NCBI RefSeq assembly: GCF_036588685.1
Contig: NC_086376.1
Location: forward strand, 22,506,001-22,570,000
Direction: 5' to 3'
DNA: 64,000 bases
DNA from: Mytilus trossulus
Lineage: Eukaryota
The number at the start of each line of letters is the position of its first letter. The first letter of the stretch is position 1. The notes under the pieces were generated by a model, which was given only the letters and a program-made list of their open reading frames with translations, made no database searches and was not told the origin of the DNA. A program made the translations under genes and the position numbers. Shown piece after piece: positions 1,207 through 59,603 of this stretch.

Positions 1207-1800
1207 TTACCATACTGCAGAAACCGAACAAGACCGTATTGATCTGCCACATTTCATGAAACACTCATTTAGGGAAAGATTATGCCGTATGCTGTTTCTA
1301 AAAGGTTCTTTTTTATTGAGGAAGGGAAAAGTATCCATTATAAAATTGAGAATGGAAATAGGGAATGTGCCAAAAAGACAACAACCCAACCATAGAGCAG
1401 ACAACAGCAGAAGGTCACCAACAGGTCTTCAATGCAACGAGAAATTCCCGCACCCGAAGGCGTCCTTCAGCTGGCCCCTAAACAATATATACTAGTTCAG
1501 TGATAATGAACGCCATACTTAACTCCAAATTGTACACAAGAAACTAAAAGTTAAAAACAAATACAAGATAATCAAAGGTCAGAGGCTCTTGACTTGGGAC
1601 AGGCGCTAAAATGCGGCGGAGTTGTTTGTGATATTTTAACCCTCCCCCTCTACCTCTAACCAATGCAGAAAAGTTAACGCATAACAATACGCACATTAAA
1701 ATTGAGTTCAAGAGAAGTCCGAGTCTGATATAAGAAGATGTAACCAAAGAAAAATTATGTATTGATTTTAGTCATTGAATAACATTTTTTCGTATTGTGT
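1207..1800 (-). pseudogene. foxQ2: FoxQ2-like forkhead fragment split by a repeat insertion
   Basis: About 1754-1795 reads KKMLFND*NQYI, then a repeat (~1340-1753), then MDTFPFLNKKEPFRNSIRHNLSLNECFMKCGRS; contains a stop and is truncated. Confidence 0.8.
1340..1753 (+). repeat. Interspersed non-coding repeat (AAAATTGAGAATGGAAAT... family)
   Basis: Interrupts the forkhead fragment; a reverse-complement copy lies at ~13860-14270. Confidence 0.75.
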
Positions 1801-7626: not shown

Positions 7627-9539
7627 TAAAAAATAAGTTATGGAACATAATCAAGTGTGCATGCTTTTTTTAAATTTTGGTGTTGAATAAAAAAATATTA
7701 TCTTTGCAGTAATGACTGAGTTTAGTAAAAGTATTTGACAATCATTATGCGTTTACATCGTAGAAATTCATAATAAACTTGGGAAACTAATGATAAGAAG
7801 TTCAATTACAAAAATACTGAAATCCGAGGAAAAGTCAATCAGAAAGTCCCTAATTACATGACAAAATCATAAACAAGCACATCAAACGAATGGATTCATA
7901 AGTCAAAGAAAACTGACAATGCCATGGCAAAATCAAAAGGTCAAAAACCTAAAAACAAATGGAAACAACTATCATATTTCTGACTAAGAACAGGCATTTC
8001 CTTATGTAGAAAATAATTAAAAAGATTTAACCTTGTTTTACAACTAGCTGAACCTATCACTTCTATGAAAGTATTATACTATTATTTCATAATGAAAAAT
8101 ACAAATAGAAATTTTGAAGTGAAACGGATGATACTAAAGGATTTTCAAACAATAAGGCCAAGAAAAATTGACAACGTCATGGACGTCTATTTTAACGTGA
8201 GAAGATTGAAGTTAAATGCTGCATTAACACATTCGTTCCCGATGCAAATGTCGTTAATCTAAGACAACGACACAGGGTCCTTTATGATTTCAGATAATTA
8301 TAACCGAAGAAAAAATTAAAAATAAATATCATCAAATGGTAATAAATAAGCGATGTATTTGTCTTGTAGATGTATACACTGTAACTTCGTTAATCGTAAA
8401 CCCCAAGTCACCGGAACTTTCTTATTTTTATGGCGAAAAAGGCAATGAAATATGTTTATGGAGAAATAAGCCTTTTGACACTCGGAATTCCTTAGCAATG
8501 TTCTCATGAGATTGGAACCTTTCTTAGAACTGAATTTGTTGATTAAAATATAAAAATGACGTTTTGCTATACACCTACTAATAGTACTACAACCTGTCTA
8601 CAAGATAAAATTTGGCATTAGACAGTGTCATATATACCTCACATTACATTACAATGACGTCATTACGCTTAAACCGTTAATTTTGTCCCTGGCAATAGTT
8701 TGCTTAGCAAACATGTATATTGATGAGTTGACAAAAAACCAAAAGAATATCTATTCAGAGAATTTAGTTGTAAGTTTGAATTTTTTGAGGTTTCTGTAAT
8801 AGTGATATTTTTTTTATTATTATTTGTAGGTCATGCACGGGACATGATCAACAGTTACCCAACGAGCAAATACTGAACGATTATTTCATAACTGTTTATA
8901 AATCATTCAGTTCTATCATAGATACTTGCAAATAAATCAATAGACTTTAGTTTTCACATATCATGGGACCGTACAAATAAGGCACTTGAAGGTGTTCTTT
9001 TATTCTTTATCACATGCAAATAATTAGGAATAAGGCAAAACGAACATAATATTTAACTTATTTATTGCACTTTGTCTGTTTCAATATGAAGTATTTGTTA
9101 TATATATATATATATATATGTTATATCATAAAGTATTTGTGAAATTATATCTAAAATTTAAAATATGTTTTACTGTGCTAAAACAAAGATTAAAAGCAAA
9201 AACAAATTCAAATATTATAAAATTATATGATCAAGTCAAGTGATATATACAGTTGGAAACGGTGCCATTATATTTGTCTCTCTTTACAGATACAGATAAG
9301 TGCCAACACAATAATTTACTGCAAACGAAAGAATTGTAACTATGTTCAAAACTCTCACACATTTTTGTTCCCCAAAACGATACTGTACGTCGACGATGCA
9401 AACGTATACACAATGTACAGAACATTTACTAAATTTGTCATCATCATTGATAGATACTTTGTATTTATTCAAAGCAGAAAATTTTAACCCCAATCTAGGC
9501 AACGTTATATACGTATATTCACCAATTAGAAAACACTTT

Positions 9540-17186: not shown

Positions 17187-17932
17187 AAAACTTGTGTCAC
17201 ATTATCAAGAGTAGGTGTAACAGTGTTTCTGATTTTGATAAAATATGAATTATCAATACAGTGACGACTGAGTTTGCATAAGTCTGCAGCGTAGACTTAC
17301 ATAATTGTTCAGAGAAAACGAGGACACTTGAATTAAAAATTTATATCATATTTACTTCATTGCTAAAGACTTAAATGTTTTTTAGATATTGAACTTTAGT
17401 TATAGTGTTTGTATAAAATGATTGAGATTAAAATTGATAAATAGTGAAAGCATGTATCAGGAACAGATAACGTTATACCGTGCCAAAACTGTAAATAGAA
17501 ATAAAAGAATTAACTGTAAAAATTTTGATTTTTTGTTGCTGTAAATATTGATTTTAACGGAGTCTCTGGTCGTTTATTTGCTATATAATGGTAAGTTTGT
17601 TATCTACTCAGGTTTTGATTTTCCTTTGGTATTTTAAGTCTTTCCTTTTCGTGTTGGTCCAGTGTATCTGATTTTATTGACGATACATATCTATTCTATA
17701 AGTTGATGCCCTTATCTATCAATTAAATCATTAAAGATGGAATAAAACAATGTTGTTAAGTGTTTATTATGTGCAAATACTCCTGTTGTGTACAGTTCAG
17801 CATCAACAAACAATTAGTTTGAAAGTAAAATATTGCTCATAACTTTTATGATTTTAATAAAGAATATTTATTTTAATGATTGAATGCTTTAATAATTAAG
17901 GTCAAAATGGAATTGTCTGTCACAAAAAGATG

Positions 17933-20265
17933 AATCTGAGATCATACTCTTAAATCCCTCTACTGTACCGCATGATACTATTTGTTCAGGCAGATGATTC
18001 CAATTAATAACAGTCTTTAGATGTTTGTATATGCCTAAATGAGTGTTGATTGCTATATCTGGTTCTTTTGTCAAGTGGGATCAAAAGATTATGTGTAGGA
18101 ACTGCTACAATTTCGTGAATAATTTTGTAAAAGAAAACAAGTCTGTATCGTAAACGCCTAATTTCGAGTGGGTACCAATTTAGGTCTGTCATCATTTCAG
18201 TAACTGAGCTGGTGTTATGGAAGTGGTTGCACGAGAAGCGTGCTGCTCTTCTCTGAACTTTTTCAATTTGTAGAGTTTGTTGTTTTTGATGTGGGTCCCA
18301 AATTGTTGAGCAGTACTCTAATTTTGGTCGGACAAGAGCTTTATATGCATGAACTTTAACTTTCGGTGATGCTATTTTTAGGTTTCTACGAATAAGTACA
18401 AGGGACTGGTTTGTTTTGGATGTCATGTTATCTACATGTTTGTCCCATTTTAAATTTGATTGAAGAGTTAGGCCTTAATATTTTGTAGAGTCAACCTTTT
18501 GTAGAGAGTGATTGTGTAATCTATAAGTAAAGTCTAAAGGTTTGCGTTTTTGAGTTACACTGAGAATCTTGCACTTATCAGGATGAAAATGCATGAGCCA
18601 GTCCTGCTCCCACCTGCCGGCCGCTTCTAAGTCAGACTGTAATTTAAGTGCGTCATCTGGTTTTCTAATTTCTCTATAAATAATGCTGTCATCTGCAAAC
18701 AATCTTAATGTACTGTGTTCAATATATTCTGCCAAATCATAAATGAAGATTAAAAATAAAATTGCACCAAACACTGTGCCTTGAGATACCCCAGATGTTA
18801 CAGGAATTTTATTTGATGTTTCACCTTCAAGGACTACTGTTTGTGTTCTGTTTGTTAAGACATCTTGAATCCAATGATATGCATTATAATTTATTCCGTA
18901 GAAACCAATTTTATACATGAGGTGGTGGTGTGAAACTTTATCAAATGCTTTTGCAAAATCCGTTATTATGATGTCTATTTGGATGTTTTTATTATTTGAA
19001 TTTGAAGGATCTTGAATAAATGACATTAGCTGAGTTTTACAGGAGCGGGAGGATCGTAAACCATGTTGTAAGTCATATAGTATTTTATTTTTTTCCAGAT
19101 GTTTCATAATGCTACTAGCTAGAATATGTTCAAATAGTTTGCAGCAGATGCAAGTCAATGATATTGGGTGATAGTTTATTCGATCGTGTTTGTCGCCTTT
19201 TTTTAATGCTGGACATATACTTGCGTGACGCCAGTCATCTGGGATCTTTCCAGAGTTCAGTGATGTTTGGACTATGATTGATAAGATGGTAATGATAGAT
19301 GATTTACACTCTAAAAAAAATTCCATGGATGAGATCAGGCCCAGCAGCTTTGTTGATGTTGATGTTATTTAGGAGTTTTTCTATGCCTTGTTTTTGTATC
19401 TTAATATCAGGCATCTGTTAATGTTTACTGACGCCCTTGTCTGGAATAGGGTCATCTGTTACAAGTGTAAATGCTTTTTTGAACTGTTCATTTAAAATAT
19501 TTCCTTTTGCTTTTGAGTCAGATATTAGTGAGCCCTCTGTTCGGAGTGGTGGTATGTTAGAGCTTTCAGACTTTTGTGTTTTTATATAACTGAACAGATT
19601 TTTTGGGAAGCTCTTTGATAAAGTAGTAGGGTTTTTATCAACTGGTATACCACAAATAATATTTTCAATATAATTCCACTAAGATGTTCTTTGTTGTTTT
19701 TGTATATCATGTTTTAATTTTTTAGTTGGTCTAGTTTCCCTTTGCCTTTCAATTTGTACTTTTGAATTTTTTTCTTGTACTTTTTCATTTGCCGTCTAAT
19801 ACTGTCTTTTATCCAAGGTAAATTTTTACTATTTCTCATCATTTTCTTTGGTATGTTCTCAGTGCTAGTGTTTGTAATGAGTTTTTTAATATTAACCAAA
19901 GTGTGTTTGTATCTTCTCTATCTTTTTTGTGTATGATCTTTTGATATATGTTATCTATATCCTCTTTTATTTTTTGCAAGTTTGCATTTTTATATTTATA
20001 TACTTTTTCGTGGCTTGGTTTGGCATCTTTTTAGTGATAGTAAACATTCTAAATATACAATATCATGGCCTGCCTCTCCTAATGGTGGCATGGTTTCAGT
20101 TTTTTCAATAATGGCTGGATAATTTGTTAACACAAGATCTAACATTTTTTCATTTCGAGTTCGTATGTTTACAACTTGTGCTAATGAATTGTCATTTATT
20201 ATTTCTAAAAATTGTTGATGTTGTTTTTGGTTTGCTTTTCCGGGGATTTCAAAGAGCAAAGTTGC
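17933..20265 (-). mobile_element. Non-LTR retrotransposon (CR1/L2-group LINE) ORF2 fragment, degenerate
   Basis: RT motifs DFAKAFDKV, SGVSQGTVFG, LFADD and FHPDKC; C-terminal WDPH...IEKVQRRAARF; endonuclease tail LDLVLTN...GHDIV; several frameshifts and stops. Confidence 0.9.
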
Positions 20266-25063: not shown

Positions 25064-26254
25064 ATGAATAAATATCAGTTGAGCATCTATCATTTGAATA
25101 GAAGAGATACAGAAAGAGTCACACGAGATTCTATCTCAAGCGAGGGTGCAGAACTGTTGACACCGTCTCTTTGTACAAGTGAAAGTGCAAGTAGCAACAG
25201 TGACAGTTATCAATCTATTCCACAGGTATGTTGGGTCATTTATAGCTTTAGATTTGAAGAAGAATTTCATAATTCATCTAAAGAATGAAGATAATAATCT
25301 ATGTAAATACAAAAAAAAACCCGAAACAAATCAAAGACGAGAAAATATATGCATTCCTATATTAAACAATAGGGAGAGACAACAGCTTAATTTAATTTGT
25401 TGCAATTACTTCAATGTACGATATTCGCGTTTTTATTCATTATTTTGTACTTTTCATCTATTTCTTTTCTGTTTTCTTAATATTTAAATTCTGTTTTGTA
25501 GGTTTTGTTATCATTCGACAGATCAATTAAGAATTGGTTATCTTCCTGTGATACTAATGAGAAACCATCGCACTCGTACATCGCTATGATTTCAATGGCA
25601 ATACTGAGTAAACCGAACAAGAAAATGTTACTCAACGATATATATCAGTTTATCATGGATACTTTTCCCTTCTACAATAATAATGAAAAAGCATGGAGAA
25701 ACAGCATCCGGCATAACATTTCAATTAACGAGTGCTTCGTAAAAATTGGCAAGTCCGATAAAGGGAAAGGCAACTATTGGTCTATTCATCAAGACTGTAT
25801 AGAGGAATTTGCAAGAGGAGATTACAGGCGTCGGAATATAAGACGAAGAGCACGAAAAAGTTCTGTAAAAACTGCCGATTGTTCACCTATTGTATTCTGC
25901 AACCGAAATAATTACGAATATATACCGATGACATTGTCGCACACTGGATTCTTCCCATACCATGTACAAGGATCCCCAATGCATAAAACTCCTCAAAATC
26001 AACCTCAAAATCAACATCAAAATCAACTGAATATTCAGACTCCTGTATCGTCATTCGGGTTGACACAAACGAATCTTCCGGCAGTCATGCATACGTTCAG
26101 AAGCGATTCATTATTTCCCGTTTCGCAATACTCGTCAAAAGGGGAATCATGCAATGCACTATCAACATATCACACTACGTCATCCTTTAAACCGGGCTCT
26201 AATTCAGCTTTTTATTCATCTAGTCAGATACATAAAGATATTTTTGATTGGTGA
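25064..26254 (+). CDS. foxQ2: FoxQ2-class forkhead transcription factor, copy A2 (2 exons, ~304 aa)
   Basis: Exon 1 25064-25225, intron 25226-25501 (GT..AG, phase 0), exon 2 25502-26254; uninterrupted frame with a complete forkhead domain. Confidence 0.9.
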
Positions 26255-26678
26255 AAAAACTTGTGTCACATTATCTAGAGAAGGTGTAACAGTGTACTGT
26301 TTAAAAAAAAAATAGAATTATCAATACAGTGACGACTGAGTTTGCATAAGTCTGCAGCGTAGACTTACATAATTGTTCAGAGAAAACGAGGACACTTGCA
26401 TTATAAATTGATATCATATTTACCACAGTGTTAAAAAAAAGACTGAAATGTATATTAGAGATTGAACTTTAGTTAAAGTGTTTGTATAAAATGATTGAGA
26501 TTAAAATTGATAAATAGTGAAAGCATTTATGAGAGGAACAGATAACATTATAACGTACCAAAACTGTATTTAGAAATAAAAGAATTAACTCTAAAAATTT
26601 TATTTTCGTTGCTGTATATATTGATTTTTACGGAGTCTCTGGTCATTTATTTGCTATTCAATGATCAGTTTGTTATCT

Positions 26679-28332: not shown

Positions 28333-30529
28333 TTACCGCTAGAAAAATTGTCCAAAATTTTGAATTCAGTTCTACGTAATGAACATTTAAATGACATATA
28401 GTTTACAAGTGGGAACAAATCTTATGTACAGGTAGCTAAACAAGGTGTATAGATGTGAACAAATGTAATGTGAAACCAGTGTACACTACACTAAACTAAT
28501 TGTAAACATGTTTACTCTACACGGCGTTTGGTGTGAACACGGCCTAAGTCTTTCCTTTTCGTGTTGGTCCGGTGTATCTGATTTTATTGACGATACATAT
28601 CTATTCTATAAGTTGATGCCCTTATTTATCAATTAAGTTATTAAAGATGGAATAAAACCCTGTTGTTAAGTGTTTATTTTGTGCAAGTACTCCTGTTGTG
28701 TACTAAATTAAGTTCAGCATCAACAAACAATTAGTTTGAAAGTAAAATATTGCTCATAGCTTTTATAATTTTAGTAAAGAATATTTATTTTGATAATTAG
28801 AGTCAAATATGGAATTGTATGTCACAAAAGGATGCATTTTTATTTATTCAAGATTAAATTTGCAAAAACAGACATGATTTTGAACTAAAACCTTATAAAG
28901 TTTACTGTTTTGACACATTATTATCAAGCAAGCTTACATGTTTACTTACTGTCCTTATAACCTTTACATTGGCCTTAGTGACTTACTGAAAATAGTACAA
29001 ACATTGTTTATTGTACACAGGTGATCATAAACAGATAAATATATTTATGAAATATAGTTTGATATAAAATTAATTTTTGGCCTCATCTTGTTATGATAAA
29101 GGAAAAGAATACTTCTTTGAACTATTATGTGATATAAAAGATTCGTAATTGAATATAATTTGTTTTGGATATACGATCGCTATCTTAAGTACTAGTTCAG
29201 TAGACAGCAAATGAAAAAAAAAAAAGATAAGAAATTGAAATAACGCGAAAGGTCTTCGACGAAAGAAGGGGCTGTTCTTGTTGATAAGCTCTTAAATATA
29301 TAGAGATTTGACAGATTTTGTAAAAATTAATCCTTTGGAATATTGAAATTCAACAATCAAAGACAAATAGTATGGTCATAAGACATCGAACTATGATTAC
29401 ATACTATCGAATGATAATTTAGATGGAATATTAGATAAGGAATTTATTTACAAATTCCATTGCCAGCAAAGGATCAATGCATAATTAAAACAAATGCATC
29501 AAGGCATGTCTTCCATATTGAAATTATGTTTACCAATTCAGAAACCACTTATCAACAAAATATTGGACAATAAAACTAATTTAAAAAAACCTCATTTTAC
29601 TATTACAGGGCCCTTTGAATCTAAATAAATATAATACATATCTAAAAACAGATTTTTTGACACATGTAAAGTTGATTGAATGAAACGAACTGAGTTTCGT
29701 TGTACTGTTACACCACTGTTTCAGGCTAGGGTGAGGGTTAGGATTCCTTTAACATATTTAACCCCACCATACTGTATGTATGTGACTGTCCCAAGTCAGA
29801 AGCCTGTAATTCAGTGGTTTTCGTTTGTTGATGTGTTACATGCTTGTTTTTCTTTCTTTTTTTGGTACATCAATTAGGCCATTAGTTTTCTCGTTGGAAA
29901 TGTTTTCATGTGTCGTTTCGGGACTTTATATAGGCGACTATGTGGTATGGGCATTGCTCGATGTTGACGGCTGTACGAAAACCTATAGCTAATTTCTGCT
30001 TCCAGAGAGTTGCTTCATTGGCATTCATACGTGTCATACCACATATTCTTTTTTATATTGAGTATTTACATATCATGGGACCGTACTGATGATGCACTAA
30101 TATATCTTCATCTTTTCCTTTGATATGCAAATGATTATACTAAACCGGTTTATTGTACTTTTGCTGTTTCAATATGAAACACAATTAGAATATTTGTTAA
30201 AATATATGTATAATTCTAAAACTATCTATACGTTGTTAAAACAAAGATTAACAGCAAATCCAAATTCAGATGTGATAAATTTATATGATATACAGTTGTA
30301 GAAACGGTGCCTAGCTGATGGTCTTGCTAACGCAAGAATTGTATGCATAAACTGTAACTATAGTCCAATCTCTAAAATACGTTTGTTCCCTATATTTATA
30401 CTATACGTCTATGTTGCAGATGTATACAACATGTCCAGAACATTTAGTAAACTTATTCATCACTGATCGATAATTTGTATTTATTCAAAGCAGAAACATT
30501 TAAACCCCAATTTATGTTATGTAAGATAA

Positions 30530-38024: not shown

Positions 38025-40264
38025 AAAAACTTGTCACATTATCTAGAGTAGGTGTAACAGTGAATCTGCTTTTGAAAAATTTAGAATTATAAATACAGTG
38101 ACGACTGAGTTTGCATAAGTCCGCATCGTAGACTTACATAATTGTTCAGAGACAACGAGGACATTTGCATTGAAAATTGATATCATATTTACTACATTGT
38201 TAAAAAAAATGCACTCAAATGTATTTTAGAGATTGAACTTTAGTTATAGTGTTTGTATAAAATGATTGAGATTAAAATTGATAAATAGTGAAAGCATGTA
38301 TCAGGAACAGATAACGTTATACCGTGCCAAAACTGTAAACAGAAATAAAAGAATTAACTGTAAAAATTTTAATTTTTTGTTGCTGTAAATATTGATTTTT
38401 ACGGAGTCTCTGGTCTTTTATTTGCTATATAATGGTCAGTTTGTTATCTACTCAGGTTTTGATTTTCCTTTGGTATTTTAAGTCTGTCCTTTTCGTTTTG
38501 GTCCAGTGTATCTGATTTTATTGACGATACATATCTATTCTATAAGTTGATGCCCTTATCTATCAATTAAATCATTAAAGATGGAATAAAACACTGTTGT
38601 TAAGGGTTTATTTTGTGCAAATACTCCTGTTGTGTAATAAATTAAGTTCAGCATCAACAAACAATTAGTTTGAAAGTAAAATATTGCTCATAGCTTTTAT
38701 AATTTTAATAGAGAATATTTTTTTAATGATTGAAAGCTTTGATAATTAAGGTCAAATATTGAATTGTCTGTCACAAAAAGATGCATTTTTATTTATTCCA
38801 GATGAAATTTGCAAAAACAGACATGATTTTGAACTTAAACCTTCTAAAGGTTACTGTTATTACACATTATTATCAAGCAAGCTTACATGTTTACTTACTG
38901 TCCTTATAACCTTTACATTGGCCTTATTTACTTACTGAAAATAGTACCAACATTGTTATTGTACATAGGTGATCATAAACAGATAAATATATTTGTAAAA
39001 TTGAGTTTGATATAAAATAAATTTTTGGCCTAATCTTGTTATGGATAAAGCAAAGAATAATTTTTTGAACTGTTCTGTGATATAAAAGATACGTAATTGA
39101 ATATAATTTGTTAGGTATATTAGATCGATATCTTAAGTACAAGGACAGCAAATGAAAATAATCGAAAAAAAGAAATTGAAATAATGCGAAGGGTCTTCGA
39201 CAAAAGAAAGGGTTGTATTTGTTGATAAGCTCTTAAATACCTAGAGATTTGACAGATCTTGAAAAAAAAATAATTCTTCGGAATATTAAAATTCAACAAT
39301 CAACAACAAATAGTATTGTCAAAAGACATGAAAATATGATTACATGCTATCGAATGATAACTTAGATGGAAAATTAGATAAAGAAATTATTTACAAATTC
39401 CTATGCCAGCAAACGTTCAATGCATAATTAAAACAAAGTCATCAAGTCATGTCTTCCATACTGAAATTATGTTTACCAATTCAGAAACCACTTCTCAACC
39501 AAATATTAGACAATTAAACTAATTCAGTGGTTTTCGTTCGTTGATGTGTTACATACTTGTTTTTCGTTCTTTTTTTGGTACATTAAGTAGGCCGTTTGTT
39601 TTCTCGTTTGAATTGTTTTCATTTGTCATTTCGGGACTTTTTATAGCTGACTATGTGGTATGGGCATTGCTCATTGTTGAAGGCTGTACGATAACCTATA
39701 GTTAATATCTGCTTCCGGAGAGTTGCTTCGTTAGTAATCATACATGTCATACCACATGTTCTTATTTTACATAATTTTTTTTTTTTAAAATATCATGGAG
39801 CCGTACTGATGAGGCACTAATATTTCTTAACTTTTTCCTTTGATATGCAAATGATAATGAATAAAGCAATATGACATATAATAAACAGGTTTATTGTACT
39901 TTCGCTATTTCAATATGAAACACAATAAGAGTATTTGTTAAAATATATGTATAATTCGAAAACCATCTATACGTTGTTAAAACAAAGATTAACAGCAAAT
40001 CCAAAATAAAATGTTATAAATGTATATGATATACAGTTGTAAAAACGGTGCCTAGATGATGGTCTTGCTTACGCAAGAATTGTAAGCATAAACTGTAACT
40101 AAAGTCCAATCTCTAAAATAGTTTTGTTCCCTAAATGCATACTATACGTCTACGTTGCAGACGTATACAACATGTCCAGTACATTTACTAAACTTAGTCA
40201 TTATAGATAATTTGTATTATTCAAAGCAGAAAAAAATCAACCCCAATATAGGTAATGTAAGATA

Positions 40265-45982: not shown

Positions 45983-48183
45983 AAAAACTTGTTTCACATT
46001 ATCAAGGGAAGGTTTAACATTTTTTTCTGCGTTTGAAAAATTTAATATCATCAATACAGTGACAAATGAGTTAAAAGATATATTGAGCAATTTGTATCAG
46101 TCTGCAGCGTGGACTTAAATAATTGTTTAGAGACAACTAGTTAACTTGTATTTACAAATAATGCCAGAAGCCAAATGTTTTACCTTGTATAAAATTACTC
46201 TGATGGAAGTAAATGTATGGTAAAGGATTTTAAAGAGGAACAATGTCTTTACTGTAAATATGTATATTTAAAATATCACATTTGATATATCATTTTGCTG
46301 TTAATGTTGATTTTCACGGAGTATTTGGTCGTTTATTTGCTATGATATGGTTAGTTTGTTATCAACTTTGATTTTGATTATCAATTTAGTATTTTAAGTC
46401 TCTCCTTTTGGTGGTTATCCATAACAACTTATTTTAAAAAGTAAGAATCTATTATCAAATTTTTTTGTTGTCTTTTACAAACAATTGACATTTTACGCTT
46501 TTTCATTCTTGATAAAATATTGCAACAACAGCAATGCTTTTGATCTTAAAGCTTATGAAAGTTACGGTTATGACACATTATTAGCAAACAAGCTAACATG
46601 TTTACTTACTGTCCTTTTAACCTTTACATTGGTTTTATTGACTAACTGAAAATAGTACTTACAACTAAGTGTTTATTGTACCTAGATAATCATAAACAGA
46701 AAAATATATTAATGAAATTTAGTTTCATTATCAATTATTTGTTTGACCTTATATTGTTAGGAATATGGTAAAGACTACTTCTAGTGGAGAGTCGTTGGTG
46801 AAGGAAAGAGTTTTTCTTGTTGATATTTTCTAAATGGAAAGGGAAAAAAATAAACCAAGAAAGCTACATACTATCTTCAACATTTAAGTATGTATCGCTA
46901 TTTATTACAAAAAATCAATAAATAAATTCCACAGAGCCTATCATAGAACTGACCCTCAAGATTTCAAACATGACAAAAACTATCAGAACATATCTACTTA
47001 TAATCACTGAATAGGGACTTTACAGGACATGCATTGACTTCGAATTTCTAATGTTTCAGGATTTGGATTTTCAACTTTTGTATCGTTACATTGATGCTTT
47101 GTCAGAATGGATAAGCGGTTACCATTGGAGCAAATACTGAACGATTATTTCATTACAGTTCATAATTCCTTCAGTTCCTTAACAAATACATGCACTTCAG
47201 TATTCATATATCATGTGAACGTACTGATAAAGCACTAAAAGAACTTTACTTGTTCTTGATTACAGGCAAATGATTAGGAATAAAGAAAAATGACATATTG
47301 GACCGATTATTGCACTTGGCTGTTTCAACATGAAAACACAATCTAACTATTTGTTAAAATATATGAAACAATCTAAAATAATGTATACTCTGTAAAACCA
47401 AAGATGAACAGCAAATACAAATTCAAATGTTAAAAATTCATATATTTTAAAAGACGTACATACAGTTATAGAAATGGTGCCGATATGTCTGTTTCGATTC
47501 CCAAATGGAGTTAAATGCCTATACTACTAGTATTTTCTTAATTTAGAAGCAAGAATTGTACACATGAACTGTTACTATAGTACAATCTCTCAAATACTTA
47601 TATTCCTTAGAACGATACTGTACGTCTACGATGCAAACGTATACAAAATGTACAGTACATTTACTAAACATTGTCATCATTAATTGACAATTTGTACTGA
47701 TTCAAAGCAGAAAAAAGTTAAACCCCAATCTAGATAATGTTATATAATATAAAACAGAAGATGTGGTATGATTCCCAATGAGACAACTATCCACAAGAGA
47801 TAAAAACTGTGACAGACATTAACAACTATAGGTCACTGTACGGCCTTCAACAATGAGCAAATCCTATACCGCATAGTCAGCTATAAAAAGCCTCGATAAG
47901 ACAATGTAAAACAATACAGACGAGAAAACTAACGACCATATTTATATGAAAAAATTGAACAAAAACTTATATGTAACACATAAACAAACGACAACCACTG
48001 AATAACAGGCTCTTGACTTGAGACAGAGACATAAATAAATAATGTGGCGGGGTTAAACATGTTCGCGGAATCCCAACCCTCCCCCTAAACTGGGGCAGTG
48101 GTATAACAATACAACATAAGAACGAACTATAAAAATCAGTTGCAAAAGGATTAACTCATCAAAAGGACAAAATACAAGTATAT

Positions 48184-48280
48184 TCACCAATCAGAAAACT
48201 CTTTTTATTTCTGAATTAAAATAAAAAGCGGAATTAAATCTCGGTCTGAATGTTAAGGACGTACAGTTTATGGATGGTGT
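48184..48280 (-). pseudogene. foxQ2: FoxQ2 copy B5: only the last ~30 codons plus 3' flank remain
   Basis: TATTCACCAATCAGAAAA...CTCGGTCTGAATGTTA...GGATGGTG matches 9516-9617; flank 47110-47750 matches 8850-9510; sequence then jumps into spacer DNA. Confidence 0.75.
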
Positions 48281-53705: not shown

Positions 53706-56558
53706 TATATTATATATAAAATTATTTCAATTGAAATCAGGAAATAGTGAAAGAATTTATCAGAGTAAGAGACAACACCATGTATACTATGTCGAAACGG
53801 TATACAGAAATAATTGAAATATCTGTAAATATTTTAATTTTTATTGCTGTTAATGTTGATTTTTACGGAGTTCCTGGTCATTTATTTGCTATTGAATGGT
53901 CAGTTTCGTATCGAGCTTGATTGTAATTTACACTTAGGTATATGACGCCCTGTCCTTTTGATGTTTATCCACTGAACGGAATTTTATTTAAGGTAATAAT
54001 CTGTTCTATAATTTATGTTGTTCCCAGATCTATCAATATGATACCAGGTTGAATTAAACACTGCTATTTAGTGTTTACTTGTAGCAATGATTGCAGTTTA
54101 GTTCTTAAATAAGGTTAGCATTTTCATCATTATCGTTTATTAGTAAAATATTACTGATAGCGTTATATGATTTCAATATGGAATAGTTATTTGAATTATT
54201 GAGTGCTGCGATCTTTGAAGACAAATTTTGTATTATTTTTTACAAAAAATTGATATTTAACGATTTTTATTTTTGATGAAATTTTGCAAAAACACCAATG
54301 ATTTTGATCTTCAAGCTTAAAAAATTTTCTGTTATGACACATTATTATCAGCCAAGCTAACATGTTTACTTACTGTCCTTATAACCTTTAAATTGACTTT
54401 ATTGACTAACTGAAAATTTAGTTTGATATAAAAATATTTGTTTGACCTTATCTTATTACGAAGGTGATAAAAAATACTTCTATGAACAATTTAGTGATAA
54501 GAATATAATCGTACTTGTTTGGCATATTAAATGGATAGCCTAAGTATAAGTTCAGTATAAGTAGCAAACAAATATTGAAATCAAAGTAGAAACTATAATT
54601 TCTTTTTCTTTAAAATGCGGAGGGATTTCAACGAAAGAAAGATGTTTCTTGTTGGTAACCTCGTAATTACAAAAACGATCAGACATTTTAAAAATAAATG
54701 CTTCGGAATATTGAAATTCAACGATCAACGCATAAACAAGGTTCAAAACACAGCAAAATATTATTACAGACTATCACAAGATGAGTAAGAAAGAATAAAT
54801 TAATGAAGCTATTACTGAAAAAAATTATATGTCAACAAACGGACAATACATAATTTAAACAAATGCATCTAGAAATTTCGTCCGCGAAGAAAAGATTTTC
54901 ACCACTTCAGAAGGCATTTATAACCCAAAAATTGAATATTAAAGAAACAGATGCTTTTTTCTATTACAGGTCAATTCTAAATAAAGACAATACACATTAG
55001 ATATGACAATTATTGGCAACACATTAAGTTGATTGAATGAACAGATAATTCATGACAAGCACATTTGAAACCTACATATTTGAAATATGATGTTACATGT
55101 AACTGTTTTAAATATCAATAAGAAGTGTAAGACTTATAAATAATGAATAATATCAACCGCAAGAAAAAAACAGTAAACGAGGTCGTGCAAAACGATACAA
55201 ACCGCCGCCATTTGTAAAAATTTAAACATGGAACTCTTCGTTTTTCTAAATCTTTTAACTTCCACTGACCTTAAAGTGCGATAAAACGAGCTATGTCTGT
55301 TTCTAAAGAGTATATATTAAGTACTCCAATCAAACGATCCATCAAAATGTTCCATCCTCCAAAGCAATCATTCAGTTAGTAGTGAAATCAGAATGACTGT
55401 TAAACTTATAAGCTGGATATAATCACATACTGCTATACTAATATAATTTTTGGAAGTCAAAAGTTCATGATTTAATTCCTTTTATTCCGAACAAATCATT
55501 TTCTCTTGTTAAATCTGTTTTCCCGGTTTGCTGGATCAACACTTACCATAAAACTCGAAAAAAAATTAACAAAAACAACAGCAGACAAATAAAAACAGTC
55601 GAATGTAGGGGTAGGTGGTGGATGAATTTGAGCAAGCTTCCTTATCCAACGTTAGAACTTTCTACATGTGATGTATCATAGTGATGTCACACAGTGAAAA
55701 TGTCACAAACATATTCATGGCTAACACTTAACGAAATCTAAACTTTTATTGAACTTGTAATATCAGTAAACTGGCAAACACAAGTATCAAAACGAGTAAT
55801 ATTATGTTTATGCCCATTACCTGTGTTCTTAGAAAAACTCCAGCAGAAATAATCATCATTACACATTTGAAGGGAAAAAACTATTAAACGTTTGCAAATA
55901 ATCAACAAATAAAGGCAACAGTAAAATACAATTGTTCCAAATTGACAAAAGGTCAATTTTTGTAAAGGACTTGCAACCTTAATTCCGTTAAAGGTACACT
56001 CCAACTAACATTTGACAAATACAGCCGGAATATATCACTGAAACACGAGATAGGGCGCAGATCATACTCTCGTTGACTTGTAATCCCCCAGCATTGCTAC
56101 TGACGCTGTAAAACCAAAAGGTTCAAAGCATAACATAATTTTCTATGGCATATTTCCTTCCCTGCTTTCGCTAGTTTATCAACCTTATGTCGTTCGTTAA
56201 GCCCACTTTTTGTGCGGTGATTCATCTTTTTCTGTGTCTTCTTTCCCTTTATTAAGTCTTATATATTTTGCGTTCGTCTTATGCTTTCGATGACGTTACT
56301 TTTAGTATTCATGTTTTATTTTATTTTCGAACAAAATGCTTTGGAAACAAATAAAACAACCTGTACTGTCAACTGTCAACATATTTTCTATTCAACAATT
56401 TGACCCGTTAATTTAAAAACAATGCCATTTGAATCAGATCACTTGACTCAGAGCTGTGAAAAATACCAGGTTTTTCTGGTATATATTCTGTAACGCAAAC
56501 AATATAAGTCATTCTGTAATCTTTTCTCAAGACGATTGCTACAATAAATTTAGAAATC

Positions 56559-57740: not shown

Positions 57741-59603
57741 TTTCAATTTATCTCACAATACCTTGTGTGAGTTTACCATTTTTCTGCTTTTGAATAATTA
57801 AAAATTATCAATGCAGTGTTTTGCTGATATAAGTAATGATGCTAGACAATTTGTATACGTCAGCAGCGTAGACAAACATAATTGTGTTGACGAACTAATG
57901 ACTATTTGTATTGAAATGATATCTGCGAAACTTCATCGTAAAAGGACTCAAATGGACTTGAGAGCTTAGACTATACTACCAGTTTATGAAGAGAATTCTT
58001 GAGTACTGACATTTAGCTGGTATCAAGACTGACACTCTGGTGCTTTGCACCGTTCTTAATTTAACTGTATAAAAATATTAATAAAAAAAATTATAACATT
58101 TTAATTTTTTGTTGCGGTTTATTTTTAATTTTATGAACTCTTTTTGTTTTTTTCTCTAAATAACCATTCATGGCTTTACAATCTGTCGATACCCGTATCT
58201 AGGCATTTCACAAGGTTATGTTATTCCCTTACTGTATTTGACGTCTTTACACTAAATTCACTGCATGTTGGATGAGTACCTATTGATGGTTTAGTCTTTG
58301 ATGTATGATTTTTCTTTATTAGTGATTATTGGTTTTAAACTAGCGTTCAGTGCGTTCAGTAACTGCAAATACTTTCTGCGTCATTTTGTATCTTTTGGCG
58401 AATTGTCTCATTGGCAAACATACCACATCTTCTTTTTTTTGTACTTTTTTTACCCTCGAAATATCAAAAAATAATAAGCAATTACAAATCAATTACAAAC
58501 CAATCCTTAGAAATATAATCTACAAAATTCATAACAATAAAGGAAGGGGTCTAAATAATATTTTTCTATTAAACTATATGTCATCAATATATTTTTCGCA
58601 TCATTATCACCTCAGTATTGTAAGCAATGTAGAAGTATGTATCAGTATGTTATCAGTAAGTGTATACACACAAAGTAAAGGTTACAGCGACAATTTGTAA
58701 ACATGTTTCTTAAGGAATAACTATGTGTAATAACAGTAACCTTTGCAACTTTTGAGATCAAAATAAAGGCTGTCTGTTATAACTTCATCCGAAATGAACC
58801 TGCAAAAAATAGAATTGTTTAATAGACAATTACAAAATGTTCCATAATAGACTTACCACTCAATTATTTATAGAAATCTTCCATTTTCAAATCACAAAAA
58901 GCTATAAATGAATCATACCACAAATCATTTTTTTGTATTAATGAGAACTTAATCGGTACATATACTAAGTGCAAGTACTTTTGGAATCACCACTCCACCA
59001 ATACACTAAACAGTAACATTCAAATTGCACTTTCAAATGGTCCAAATTTTGATAAATAAGGGCAAACTATAAATCAGCTAATTGAAGTTATTTAAATTAA
59101 GAATAGACGCAGTGCATAGCCATAAACAGAGAACAAAAAGATACGAAACACATAAATCGATATCGAACTGATAATGCCATGGAAAAAACCCAAAAGACTC
59201 CATAAAATAAACAGCAACAAAAATGCATATGTTGAAAATTATTTTTATTAATTTCATATACAGTTGTAAGAACGGTGCCAAGCACCAGAGTGTCAATCGT
59301 GATAACAGCTAAATGTCAGTTCTACTTATAGACTCCAAACTCAAGAATTCTTTTCATAAACTGGTAGTATAGTCCAAACTCTCAAGTCTATTTTGAGTCC
59401 TTTCACGTTACAGTTTCGCTGGTATCATTTCAATACAAATAGTTCTTAATTCGTCAAAACGATTATGTTATTCTACGCTACTGACGTATACAAATTGTCT
59501 AGCATCTTTACTTATATCAGCCAAACATTGCATTGATAATTTTCAATTATTCAAAAGCAACAAATTTTTAAACTCACATTTGGTATTGTGAAATAAATTA
59601 AAA

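Follow-up and report, generated by a model that had tools for sequence, protein, structure and literature searches.

Is the hairpin-shaped site of 21 nt that recurs ~100 nt past the stop codons of many forkhead genes in Mytilus trossulus an RNA element maintained by selection, or a palindrome copied along with the genes? The window analyzed here comprises 64,000 nucleotides (nt) of contig NC_086376.1 (positions 22,506,001 to 22,570,000) and contains eleven related 3' flanks of two-exon forkhead genes; unless given in megabases or labeled otherwise, coordinates refer to this window. An earlier note on this DNA described the site as a conserved stem-loop with compensatory base changes, decayed in a pseudogene. 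The site is a real sequence feature whose function is unproven.

Hairpin sites in a tandem forkhead cluster

Genome searches place the window inside a tandem forkhead cluster that extends from 22.443 to 22.652 Mb and holds at least 31 forkhead copies, 8 of 31 being broken. Over the window and 170 kb of neighboring DNA, a flank profile detects 31 homologous 3' flanks, with or without the stem, between 22.443 and 22.637 Mb, i.e., within 194 kb. The copy names A, B, and C follow the earlier note, to which we added D, G, C3 to C5, and the distant copies E, F, and H. Twenty-four copies (A, B, C, D, and G) constitute the hairpin clade, among them the ten near-identical G copies to the right of the window, which are spaced ~3.1 to 3.6 kb apart; the other 7 copies are the more distant paralogs E, F, and H.

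The forkhead domain (PF00250) is present in all three of the cluster proteins scanned, and the database names of cluster-related proteins are automatic and mixed (fkh-2-like, I3-like, and L1). The closest named proteins come from Mytilus species, some being identical to proteins of the window. A Mytilus-specific foxQ2 expansion, Fox-Q2c, is already in print (PMC12530298), and our cluster resembles it in having relatives in four other Mytilus species, whereas the available text of that report is silent on untranslated regions (UTRs) and on tandem layout. From that expansion the host genes are likely of the foxQ2 class, and we infer that the cluster corresponds to Fox-Q2c. In a tree of 56 proteins (39 from databases and 17 from the cluster, the latter without the broken copies and without eight G and E copies that are nearly identical), the hairpin clade has support of 99/99 and takes in proteins from M. 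coruscus, M. californianus, M. edulis, and M. galloprovincialis. Because the clade includes proteins of these four other species, the site probably predates the splits of those species.

All eight sequences cited in the earlier note exist in place and on the correct strand. We number the site from 1 to 21, with nine possible pairs (e.g., 3-19, 7-15, and 8-14). The A2 gene has a predicted first exon from ATG to splice donor (25064 to 25225, plus strand), a layout also found in database proteins, and a second-exon coding part with the forkhead domain and stop (25502 to 26254, plus strand), at whose acceptor the spliced contigs of a paralog start to match. Its site (26347 to 26367, plus strand) begins 93 nt past the stop and forms 9 pairs, including one G-U, around an AGC loop. 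The other plus-strand A sites are A1 (17279 to 17299; 9/9 pairs, in a gene with a frameshift and an exon-1 stop), A3 (38116 to 38136; 8/9 with a C.A mismatch, in an intact gene, fold probability ~0.2), and A4 (46097 to 46117; 8/9 with a C.U mismatch, in an intact gene, with a longer lower stem predicted). The B sites lie on the minus strand: B1 (9386 to 9406; 8/9 with a central U.C mismatch, fold probability ~0.05) belongs to the only B copy with a near-full open reading frame, B2 (40145 to 40165; 9/9, extending to 11 pairs) to a frameshifted gene, B3 (30404 to 30424; 7/9) to a broken gene, and B4 (47621 to 47641; 9/9) to a 3' fragment in which no forkhead coding sequence was found. Two intact genes in which the fold is not predicted carry C1 (57856 to 57876, plus strand; 6/9) and C2 (59468 to 59488, minus strand; 5/9). 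The D site (7748 to 7768, plus strand; 6/9), in a broken gene, had been overlooked.

Over the whole clade, the stem has 9/9 pairs in A1, A2, B2, and B4 (counting the G-U at pair 8-14), 8/9 in A3, A4, B1, and eight G copies, 7/9 in B3, G5, and G7, 6/9 in C1 and D, 5/9 in C2, C4, and C5, and 4/9 in C3. Seven columns (positions 1, 5, 10, 12, 14, 16, and 17, two of them loop positions) are invariant in the 24 copies. All 21 distinct rows form pairs 5-17 and 6-16, in three cases through U-G, and a G.T at pair 8-14 is left uncorrected in 17 of 21 rows. The loop, described earlier as ANC closed by C-G, is A-N-C in 24 of 24 clade copies (as AGC, AUC, or AAC) with C-G closure in 22, but this description does not extend to the 7 distant paralogs, which align through the region and read CAGGT, CAGAT, or CCGGT at the loop.

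Distribution of the site

The 24 sites are one ancestral site shared by descent and confined to the cluster. A 201-nt flank query yields 15 genome matches and a 25-nt pattern yields 11, all of them in the cluster. A 15-nt core pattern has 31 genome matches, versus 1 for the reversed control, with 14 in the cluster. Of the 17 non-cluster matches, 14 were examined and reduce to a repeat present in 6 copies, 3 loci belonging to a second repeat, and 5 single loci, which is near a rough composition estimate of ~8. The 6-copy repeat is dispersed (L051 to L056, on contigs C1, C3, C7, C8, C10, and C14), at least 2 kb long, and 94 to 97% identical among copies; it has 18 nt identical to the G-type hairpin and no further flank similarity (profile E = 0.28 to 0.41). 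No second independent family of sites was found in the genome by these pattern searches. A covariance model, which the earlier note had proposed as a route to further members, recovered all 24 copies on which it was trained and, in 268 kb of loci, no more than three weak extras (E = 0.06 to 0.32). This confinement to the cluster speaks against both a transposon end and a genome-wide regulon.

Neither of the 2 loci returned by a metagenome scan for orthologous DNA of other species has a homologous flank, nor do three other fox loci tested (L026, L029, and L030). A literature search, with most subscription journals outside its reach, found no paper on the structure of foxQ2 3' UTRs, and PMC12828049, in its available portion, makes no mention of Mytilus.

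Base changes in the stem

The compensatory argument of the earlier note was that an A-U pair in A copies is C-G in B copies. This is true of pair 3-19 (A-U in the 4 A copies and C-G in the 4 B copies), but most of the clade, 16 of 24 copies (or 14 of 21 distinct rows), has an unpaired C.U or C.A at these positions, and A and B are each one base from this majority. Pair 7-15 is U-A in 6 copies, A-U in the 10 G copies, and A.A in 5 C copies, with U-G, C.A, and U.C occurring once each. Nor do all other changes yield G-U pairs as described, since A3 has its C.A, A4 its C.U, and B1 its central U.C.

In column shuffles of the 24 rows, a control that ignores the relatedness of copies, the observed 80.4% of paired cells is matched by 16 of 500 shuffles, the covariation score by 13 of 500, and the two pairs with double changes by 493 of 500; with all 31 rows, the corresponding counts are 0/500, 2/500, and 29/500. 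Neutral change was therefore also simulated on the flank tree, with each of three extant copies as the starting point for 3000 runs, and double changes in these simulations average 2.05 to 2.23. The copies show no excess of double changes over neutral: 2 pairs have them, against an expectation of 2.0 to 2.2 (P[≥2] = 0.65 to 0.69), and they lose their value as evidence of compensation. An extended 18-pair stem has 78.6% of cells paired (28 rows), double changes not above shuffles (192/500), and a lower-stem rate of 0.95. RNAalifold on the aligned 3' flanks, suggested in the earlier note as a check, predicts no pair on 31 or on 24 rows. The alignment holds only 24 stem changes over 9 pairs, making the covariation test low-powered, and covariation that is absent at low power is weak evidence either way (10.1101/789404). 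The null result thus removes the original argument without disproving a structure.

Stem quality and gene integrity

Stem quality does not follow gene integrity. Seven of the 24 clade genes are broken (D, A1, B2, B3, B4, C3, and G1), exon 1 having been checked in 7 window copies only. The earlier note read the stem as decayed in a pseudogene, yet the 7 broken copies average 7.4/9 pairs and the 17 intact ones 7.3/9. B3, the copy on which that view was based, retains 7/9 pairs, with two CG>CA changes. Three of the four copies with 9/9 pairs (A1, B2, and B4) are broken genes, and the intact C1, C2, C4, and C5 keep 5 to 6 of 9. On branches leading only to broken genes, the site evolves at a rate of 0.69 (95%, 0.35 to 1.20) versus 0.59 elsewhere (P = 0.70), a weak test; codon positions 1+2 relax on broken-gene branches (P = 0.031 and 0.018).

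Rates of change and predicted folding

Conservation no higher than in the surrounding flank, which the earlier note had named as a point against an element, is not what the rates give. In the 24-copy clade, the 21 site columns evolve at 0.62 (95%, 0.42 to 0.87), whereas the remaining 237 columns of the flank evolve at 1.05, the intron (20 copies) at 1.07, third codon positions at 0.85, and coding sequence on average at 0.60. For these rates we masked the distal parts of A4 and D that are not homologous, as well as all columns beyond 312. The difference between site and flank is nominally significant (LRT, P = 0.006), and 4 of 197 windows clear of the site are equally slow, with one real flank window that has no marked stem being slower still (0.55). 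Of 1000 neutral flanks, 72% contain at least one 21-column window as slow as the site; for a window at this very place, P = 0.012. Across all 31 copies, the site is no slower than random column sets (P = 0.18).

The site is also the top-scoring kept 9-pair stem of the flank, and among 1500 neutral flanks simulated from shuffled starts, its score is reached in none and its paired fraction in 1.5%. Neutral decay retains the observed paired fraction in 2.7 to 3.3% of runs that start from 9/9 pairs and in 0.4% of those that start from 8/9. Given the observed number of changes, the pairing has a P of 0.27 to 0.39 from a 9/9 start and of 0.04 from an 8/9 start; since pairing does not clearly exceed the neutral level for this change count, the signal consists mainly of fewer changes rather than of pair-keeping changes. 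The slow rate together with the kept stem is the strongest result against a passive origin, and it is partly discounted because this stem was picked among many possible features.

The A2 21-mer folds at -8.6 kcal/mol, with a z of -3.96 alone and -1.20 with 56 nt of context. Among 906 tiles of 258 nt from the region, 2.6 to 3.1% contain a stem scoring like that of A2, and ~33% contain one scoring 17, as the G-type stem does. With 125 nt of context at 37°C, the stem is predicted with P > 0.9 in 14 of 31 copies (A1, A2, A4, B2, and G1 to G10) and with P ~0.5 in B4; F1 reaches 0.65 through a different 4-pair stem, and all others are at or below 0.3. The stem is not predicted to fold in context in B1, C1 to C5, or H, and folding at 15°C changes little.

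Transcripts and polyadenylation signals

The site probably lies within the 3' UTR, as seen for H and weakly for G. The contigs of the sequencing runs X1, X2, X3, and X5, which are four of five low-share runs, are only guessed to be RNA, and X1 to X3 come from one study. In X1, X2, and X3, the deepest cluster contig is spliced at the exon-2 acceptor, matches H at 15 of 15 diagnostic places, and extends 492, 260, and 419 nt, respectively, past the H stop, covering the homologous site at +121 to +133; the first AATAAA of H is at +502. No such spliced H contig occurs in X5. G exons are covered in X1 and X3, and in X3 a single contig of 228 nt (depth 2.3, 6 differences) runs from the stop of a G copy through its hairpin. 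H and, more weakly, G are the only cluster copies with clear contigs in the runs examined, in which no spliced contig spans an A or B hairpin. A G-type contig in X1 ends 86 nt past the stop, before the hairpin, and the A2 hairpin is uncovered by X1 or X2 pieces; in neither case was lack of coverage counted as evidence. An X5 contig covers the A2 stop and hairpin but only 24 nt beyond, which is under our 31-nt bridging rule.

A candidate poly(A) signal of A2, AATAAA at 26575 to 26580 (plus strand), lies 228 nt downstream of the site start, and an AATAAA or ATTAAA is present 221 to 270 nt past the site start in 19 of 24 clade copies, that of D being in non-homologous sequence. The earlier note had raised the possibility that the B1 hairpin lies past the cleavage site, and the AATAAA on which this was based is real (9464 to 9469, minus strand; 63 nt upstream of the B1 site). 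One at 61 to 63 nt before the site occurs in only 3 of 24 clade copies (B1, B3, and D).

Comparison with known RNA elements

The earlier note could assign the hairpin to no known family, and this stands: Rfam 15 gives 0 matches in the 64-kb window and 0 at E ≤ 10 on the A2 flank. On a G flank it gives 4 chance bacterial matches at E values of 5 to 8, none over the hairpin. Tests of membership in three known classes also fail.

G-type copies resemble the iron-responsive element (IRE; RF00037), whose geometry is described in PMC2649033, PMC2896125, and PMC8466369, in that a C is left unpaired five pairs beneath the loop, a C-G pair closes an A-G-x triloop, and a lower stem follows. The C-G pair closing the triloop (C14-G18 of the IRE) is present in 22 of 24 clade copies, but the AGU loop triplet (as defined in PMC8466369) is present in 0 of 24. 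Also missing is the bulged sixth loop base, N19, the loss of which destroys IRE function (PMC8466369); the clade loop has five bases, and in a six-base register the upper stem does not pair. The IRE-type unpaired C occurs in the 10 G copies; the position is paired in the 4 B copies and is an A in the 4 A copies, and the stem is broken in C1 to C5 and D.

CNGG(N) loops, recognized by Smaug and Vts1 and found in HBV SL-alpha, include CAGGU (PMC2275152, PMC4053848), and CAGGT or CCGGT stands at the loop position in 6 of the 7 distant paralogs. In contrast, 0 of 24 hairpin-clade copies have the Smaug recognition element CNGG(N0-4) as defined in PMC4053848, and the closing stem in the six CNGG paralogs has a P of 0.00 to 0.01 (genomic alleles only). 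At hairpin position 18 (L048:8319), H contigs from three runs carry a base other than the genomic one, which would make pair 4-18 a G-C and allow a stem of 5 pairs beneath a CAGGU loop of the CNGG type; this version may be an allele. The Roquin CDE is likewise a short 3' UTR stem with a triloop, as predicted for 14 of 31 copies here, but Roquin prefers pyrimidine-purine-pyrimidine loops (PMC6145892) and the first loop base is A in 24 of 24 clade copies.

Origin and possible function

Taken as an RNA element, the hairpin retains a likely 3' UTR location, a lack of known relatives, and a rate below that of its flank, but the compensatory change and the pseudogene decay fail. We consider the chances about even that the site is a passenger palindrome, copied with the genes and with its pairing not under selection. 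A short imperfect inverted repeat would have been inherited once in the 3' flank and then copied by each duplication, the copies likely diverging by ordinary point mutation without selection on pairing. Single changes, arising by chance or through replication template switching, would have closed mismatches independently in the A, B, and G lineages, and the slower rate would reflect chance plus the choice of the best-kept stem for study. Template switching can repair stem mismatches (PMC8794818), and the quasi-palindromes it produces share with this site an imperfect inverted repeat and isolated mismatch-closing changes in separate lineages; they differ in that all closing changes here are single bases, a class called uninformative in that paper, and in that the clade contains no loop inversion or multi-base fix and its G.T stays. 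The persistence of that G.T at 8-14 speaks against frequent template switching here. Transcripts that extend through a passenger site would fold the stem in about half of the copies, with no needed effect. If the site is a passenger, it offers a clean caution, in that two "compensatory" pairs in a hairpin of paralog flanks, together with its decay in a pseudogene copy, cease to be evidence when the full set of 31 copies and their tree is considered.

Well short of even, though the foremost competitor, is a lineage-restricted 3' UTR stem-loop under weak selection that acts on mRNA lifetime in early embryos, its 5- to 9-pair stem and A-N-C triloop being bound by a shape-reading RNA-binding protein and its gain or loss tuning each paralog. 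The slow rate of 0.62 and the stem score unequaled in 1500 neutral flanks favor it, as do the confident folds of A1, A2, A4, B2, and all 10 G copies, inner pairs that vary mostly through G-U, mismatches closed in three lineages, the homologous site inside the spliced H transcript in 3 of 4 runs (guessed RNA) along with the G contig at depth 2.3, and a candidate poly(A) signal downstream in most clade copies. Expression is compatible as well, since spiralian foxQ2 paralogs have short stage-specific peaks and oyster foxQ2c is maternal (10.1101/2022.03.02.482670). Against selection on the stem-loop are the lack of covariation above neutral, the perfect stems in broken genes, the absence of the fold from intact B1, C1, C2, C4, and C5 and from H, whose spliced contigs are the deepest in 3 of 4 runs, the failure to match any of the known binding consensuses compared above, and the lack of a second independent site family in the genome. 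A more specific version, which we consider doubtful, holds that the 3' UTR stem-loop is young and previously undescribed, having originated within one branch of the expanded Mytilus foxQ2 genes as a CNGG-type loop turned into a C-ANC-G triloop on an IRE-shaped scaffold, and that its being switched on and off among tandem paralogs sets different mRNA lifetimes in the early embryo. If functional, the site would be a rare RNA cis-element caught being born, repaired, and lost in a young cluster of developmental transcription factors, with the ten near-identical G copies and the naturally stem-broken C copies as ready controls.

The constraint could instead act on the sequence itself, either as a DNA palindrome downstream of the gene that binds a dimeric transcription factor or as a linear motif in the RNA, the hairpin being a by-product of symmetry. 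The seven invariant columns, with two in the loop, and a slowdown that is significant whereas pairing given the change count is not would suit this possibility. We regard it as improbable. In two lineages position 6 has become T opposite an unchanged G at 16, a pattern more in keeping with RNA pairing than with DNA symmetry; A/B and C/G copies have different inner arm sequences; and there is no relaxation on broken-gene branches. Helitrons carry a short 3' hairpin, and the stem could be the remnant of such a transposon end in the ancestral flank: a CTAA or CTAG lies ~18 to 19 nt past the stem in A4, C1, C3 to C5, D, and G, and the 6-copy dispersed repeat shares its 18 nt with the G-type site. 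This origin is already largely refuted and highly improbable, in that homology between copies continues hundreds of bases past the site, the flank (15) and 25-nt (11) matches are all in the cluster, and the similarity of the repeat ends at the motif.

Other features of the cluster

Several features surround the hairpin. A1 to A3 have a common deletion of ~25 nt just 5' of it (17262 to 17278, 26330 to 26346, and 38099 to 38115); with it they have lost the 5' arm of the longer lower stem that is present in G, A4, E2, and E3. In C copies (57838 to 57894 and 59450 to 59506), the 5' arm pairs instead with a TGACG ~30 nt downstream, an alternative partner specific to C and G copies. A second stem, of 6 pairs, occurs ~10 nt past the stop (57752 to 57771, plus strand; 59573 to 59592, minus strand; and in G, E, F2, C4, and C5 copies), reading CCCACA/TGTGGG in E, CTCACA/TGTGAG in C1 and G, and CCAACA/TGTTGG in C5; it has two double changes and a region rate of 1.08 in the 24-copy clade and is absent from A, B, and D.

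Insertions and fragments are scattered through the cluster. A ~430-nt insertion separates the end of the coding sequence from the flank in B4 (47600 to 48236, minus strand), and a MITE-like insertion of ~219 nt, bounded by terminal inverted repeats, lies after the stop and before the hairpin in the G3 flank (contig positions ~22591810 to 22592030). Between A1 and A2 lies a LINE-like element with pieces of a reverse-transcriptase (PF00078) open reading frame (18004 to 19326, minus strand). There are also an orphan short forkhead piece (1240 to 1353, minus strand) and an orphan distal 3' flank piece that has no hairpin (53715 to 53912, plus strand).

The proteins themselves vary near the N terminus, where the FSIDYL or FSIDFL of H-type and oyster proteins is replaced by LSIYHL, LSIYYL, or LSNYYL in A, C, and G copies (25064 to 25100, 36849, 44804, 56559, and 60757; proteins P0009 and P0034). 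The H-type and oyster stretch is eh1-like, and the A, C, and G proteins may therefore have lost co-repressor binding.
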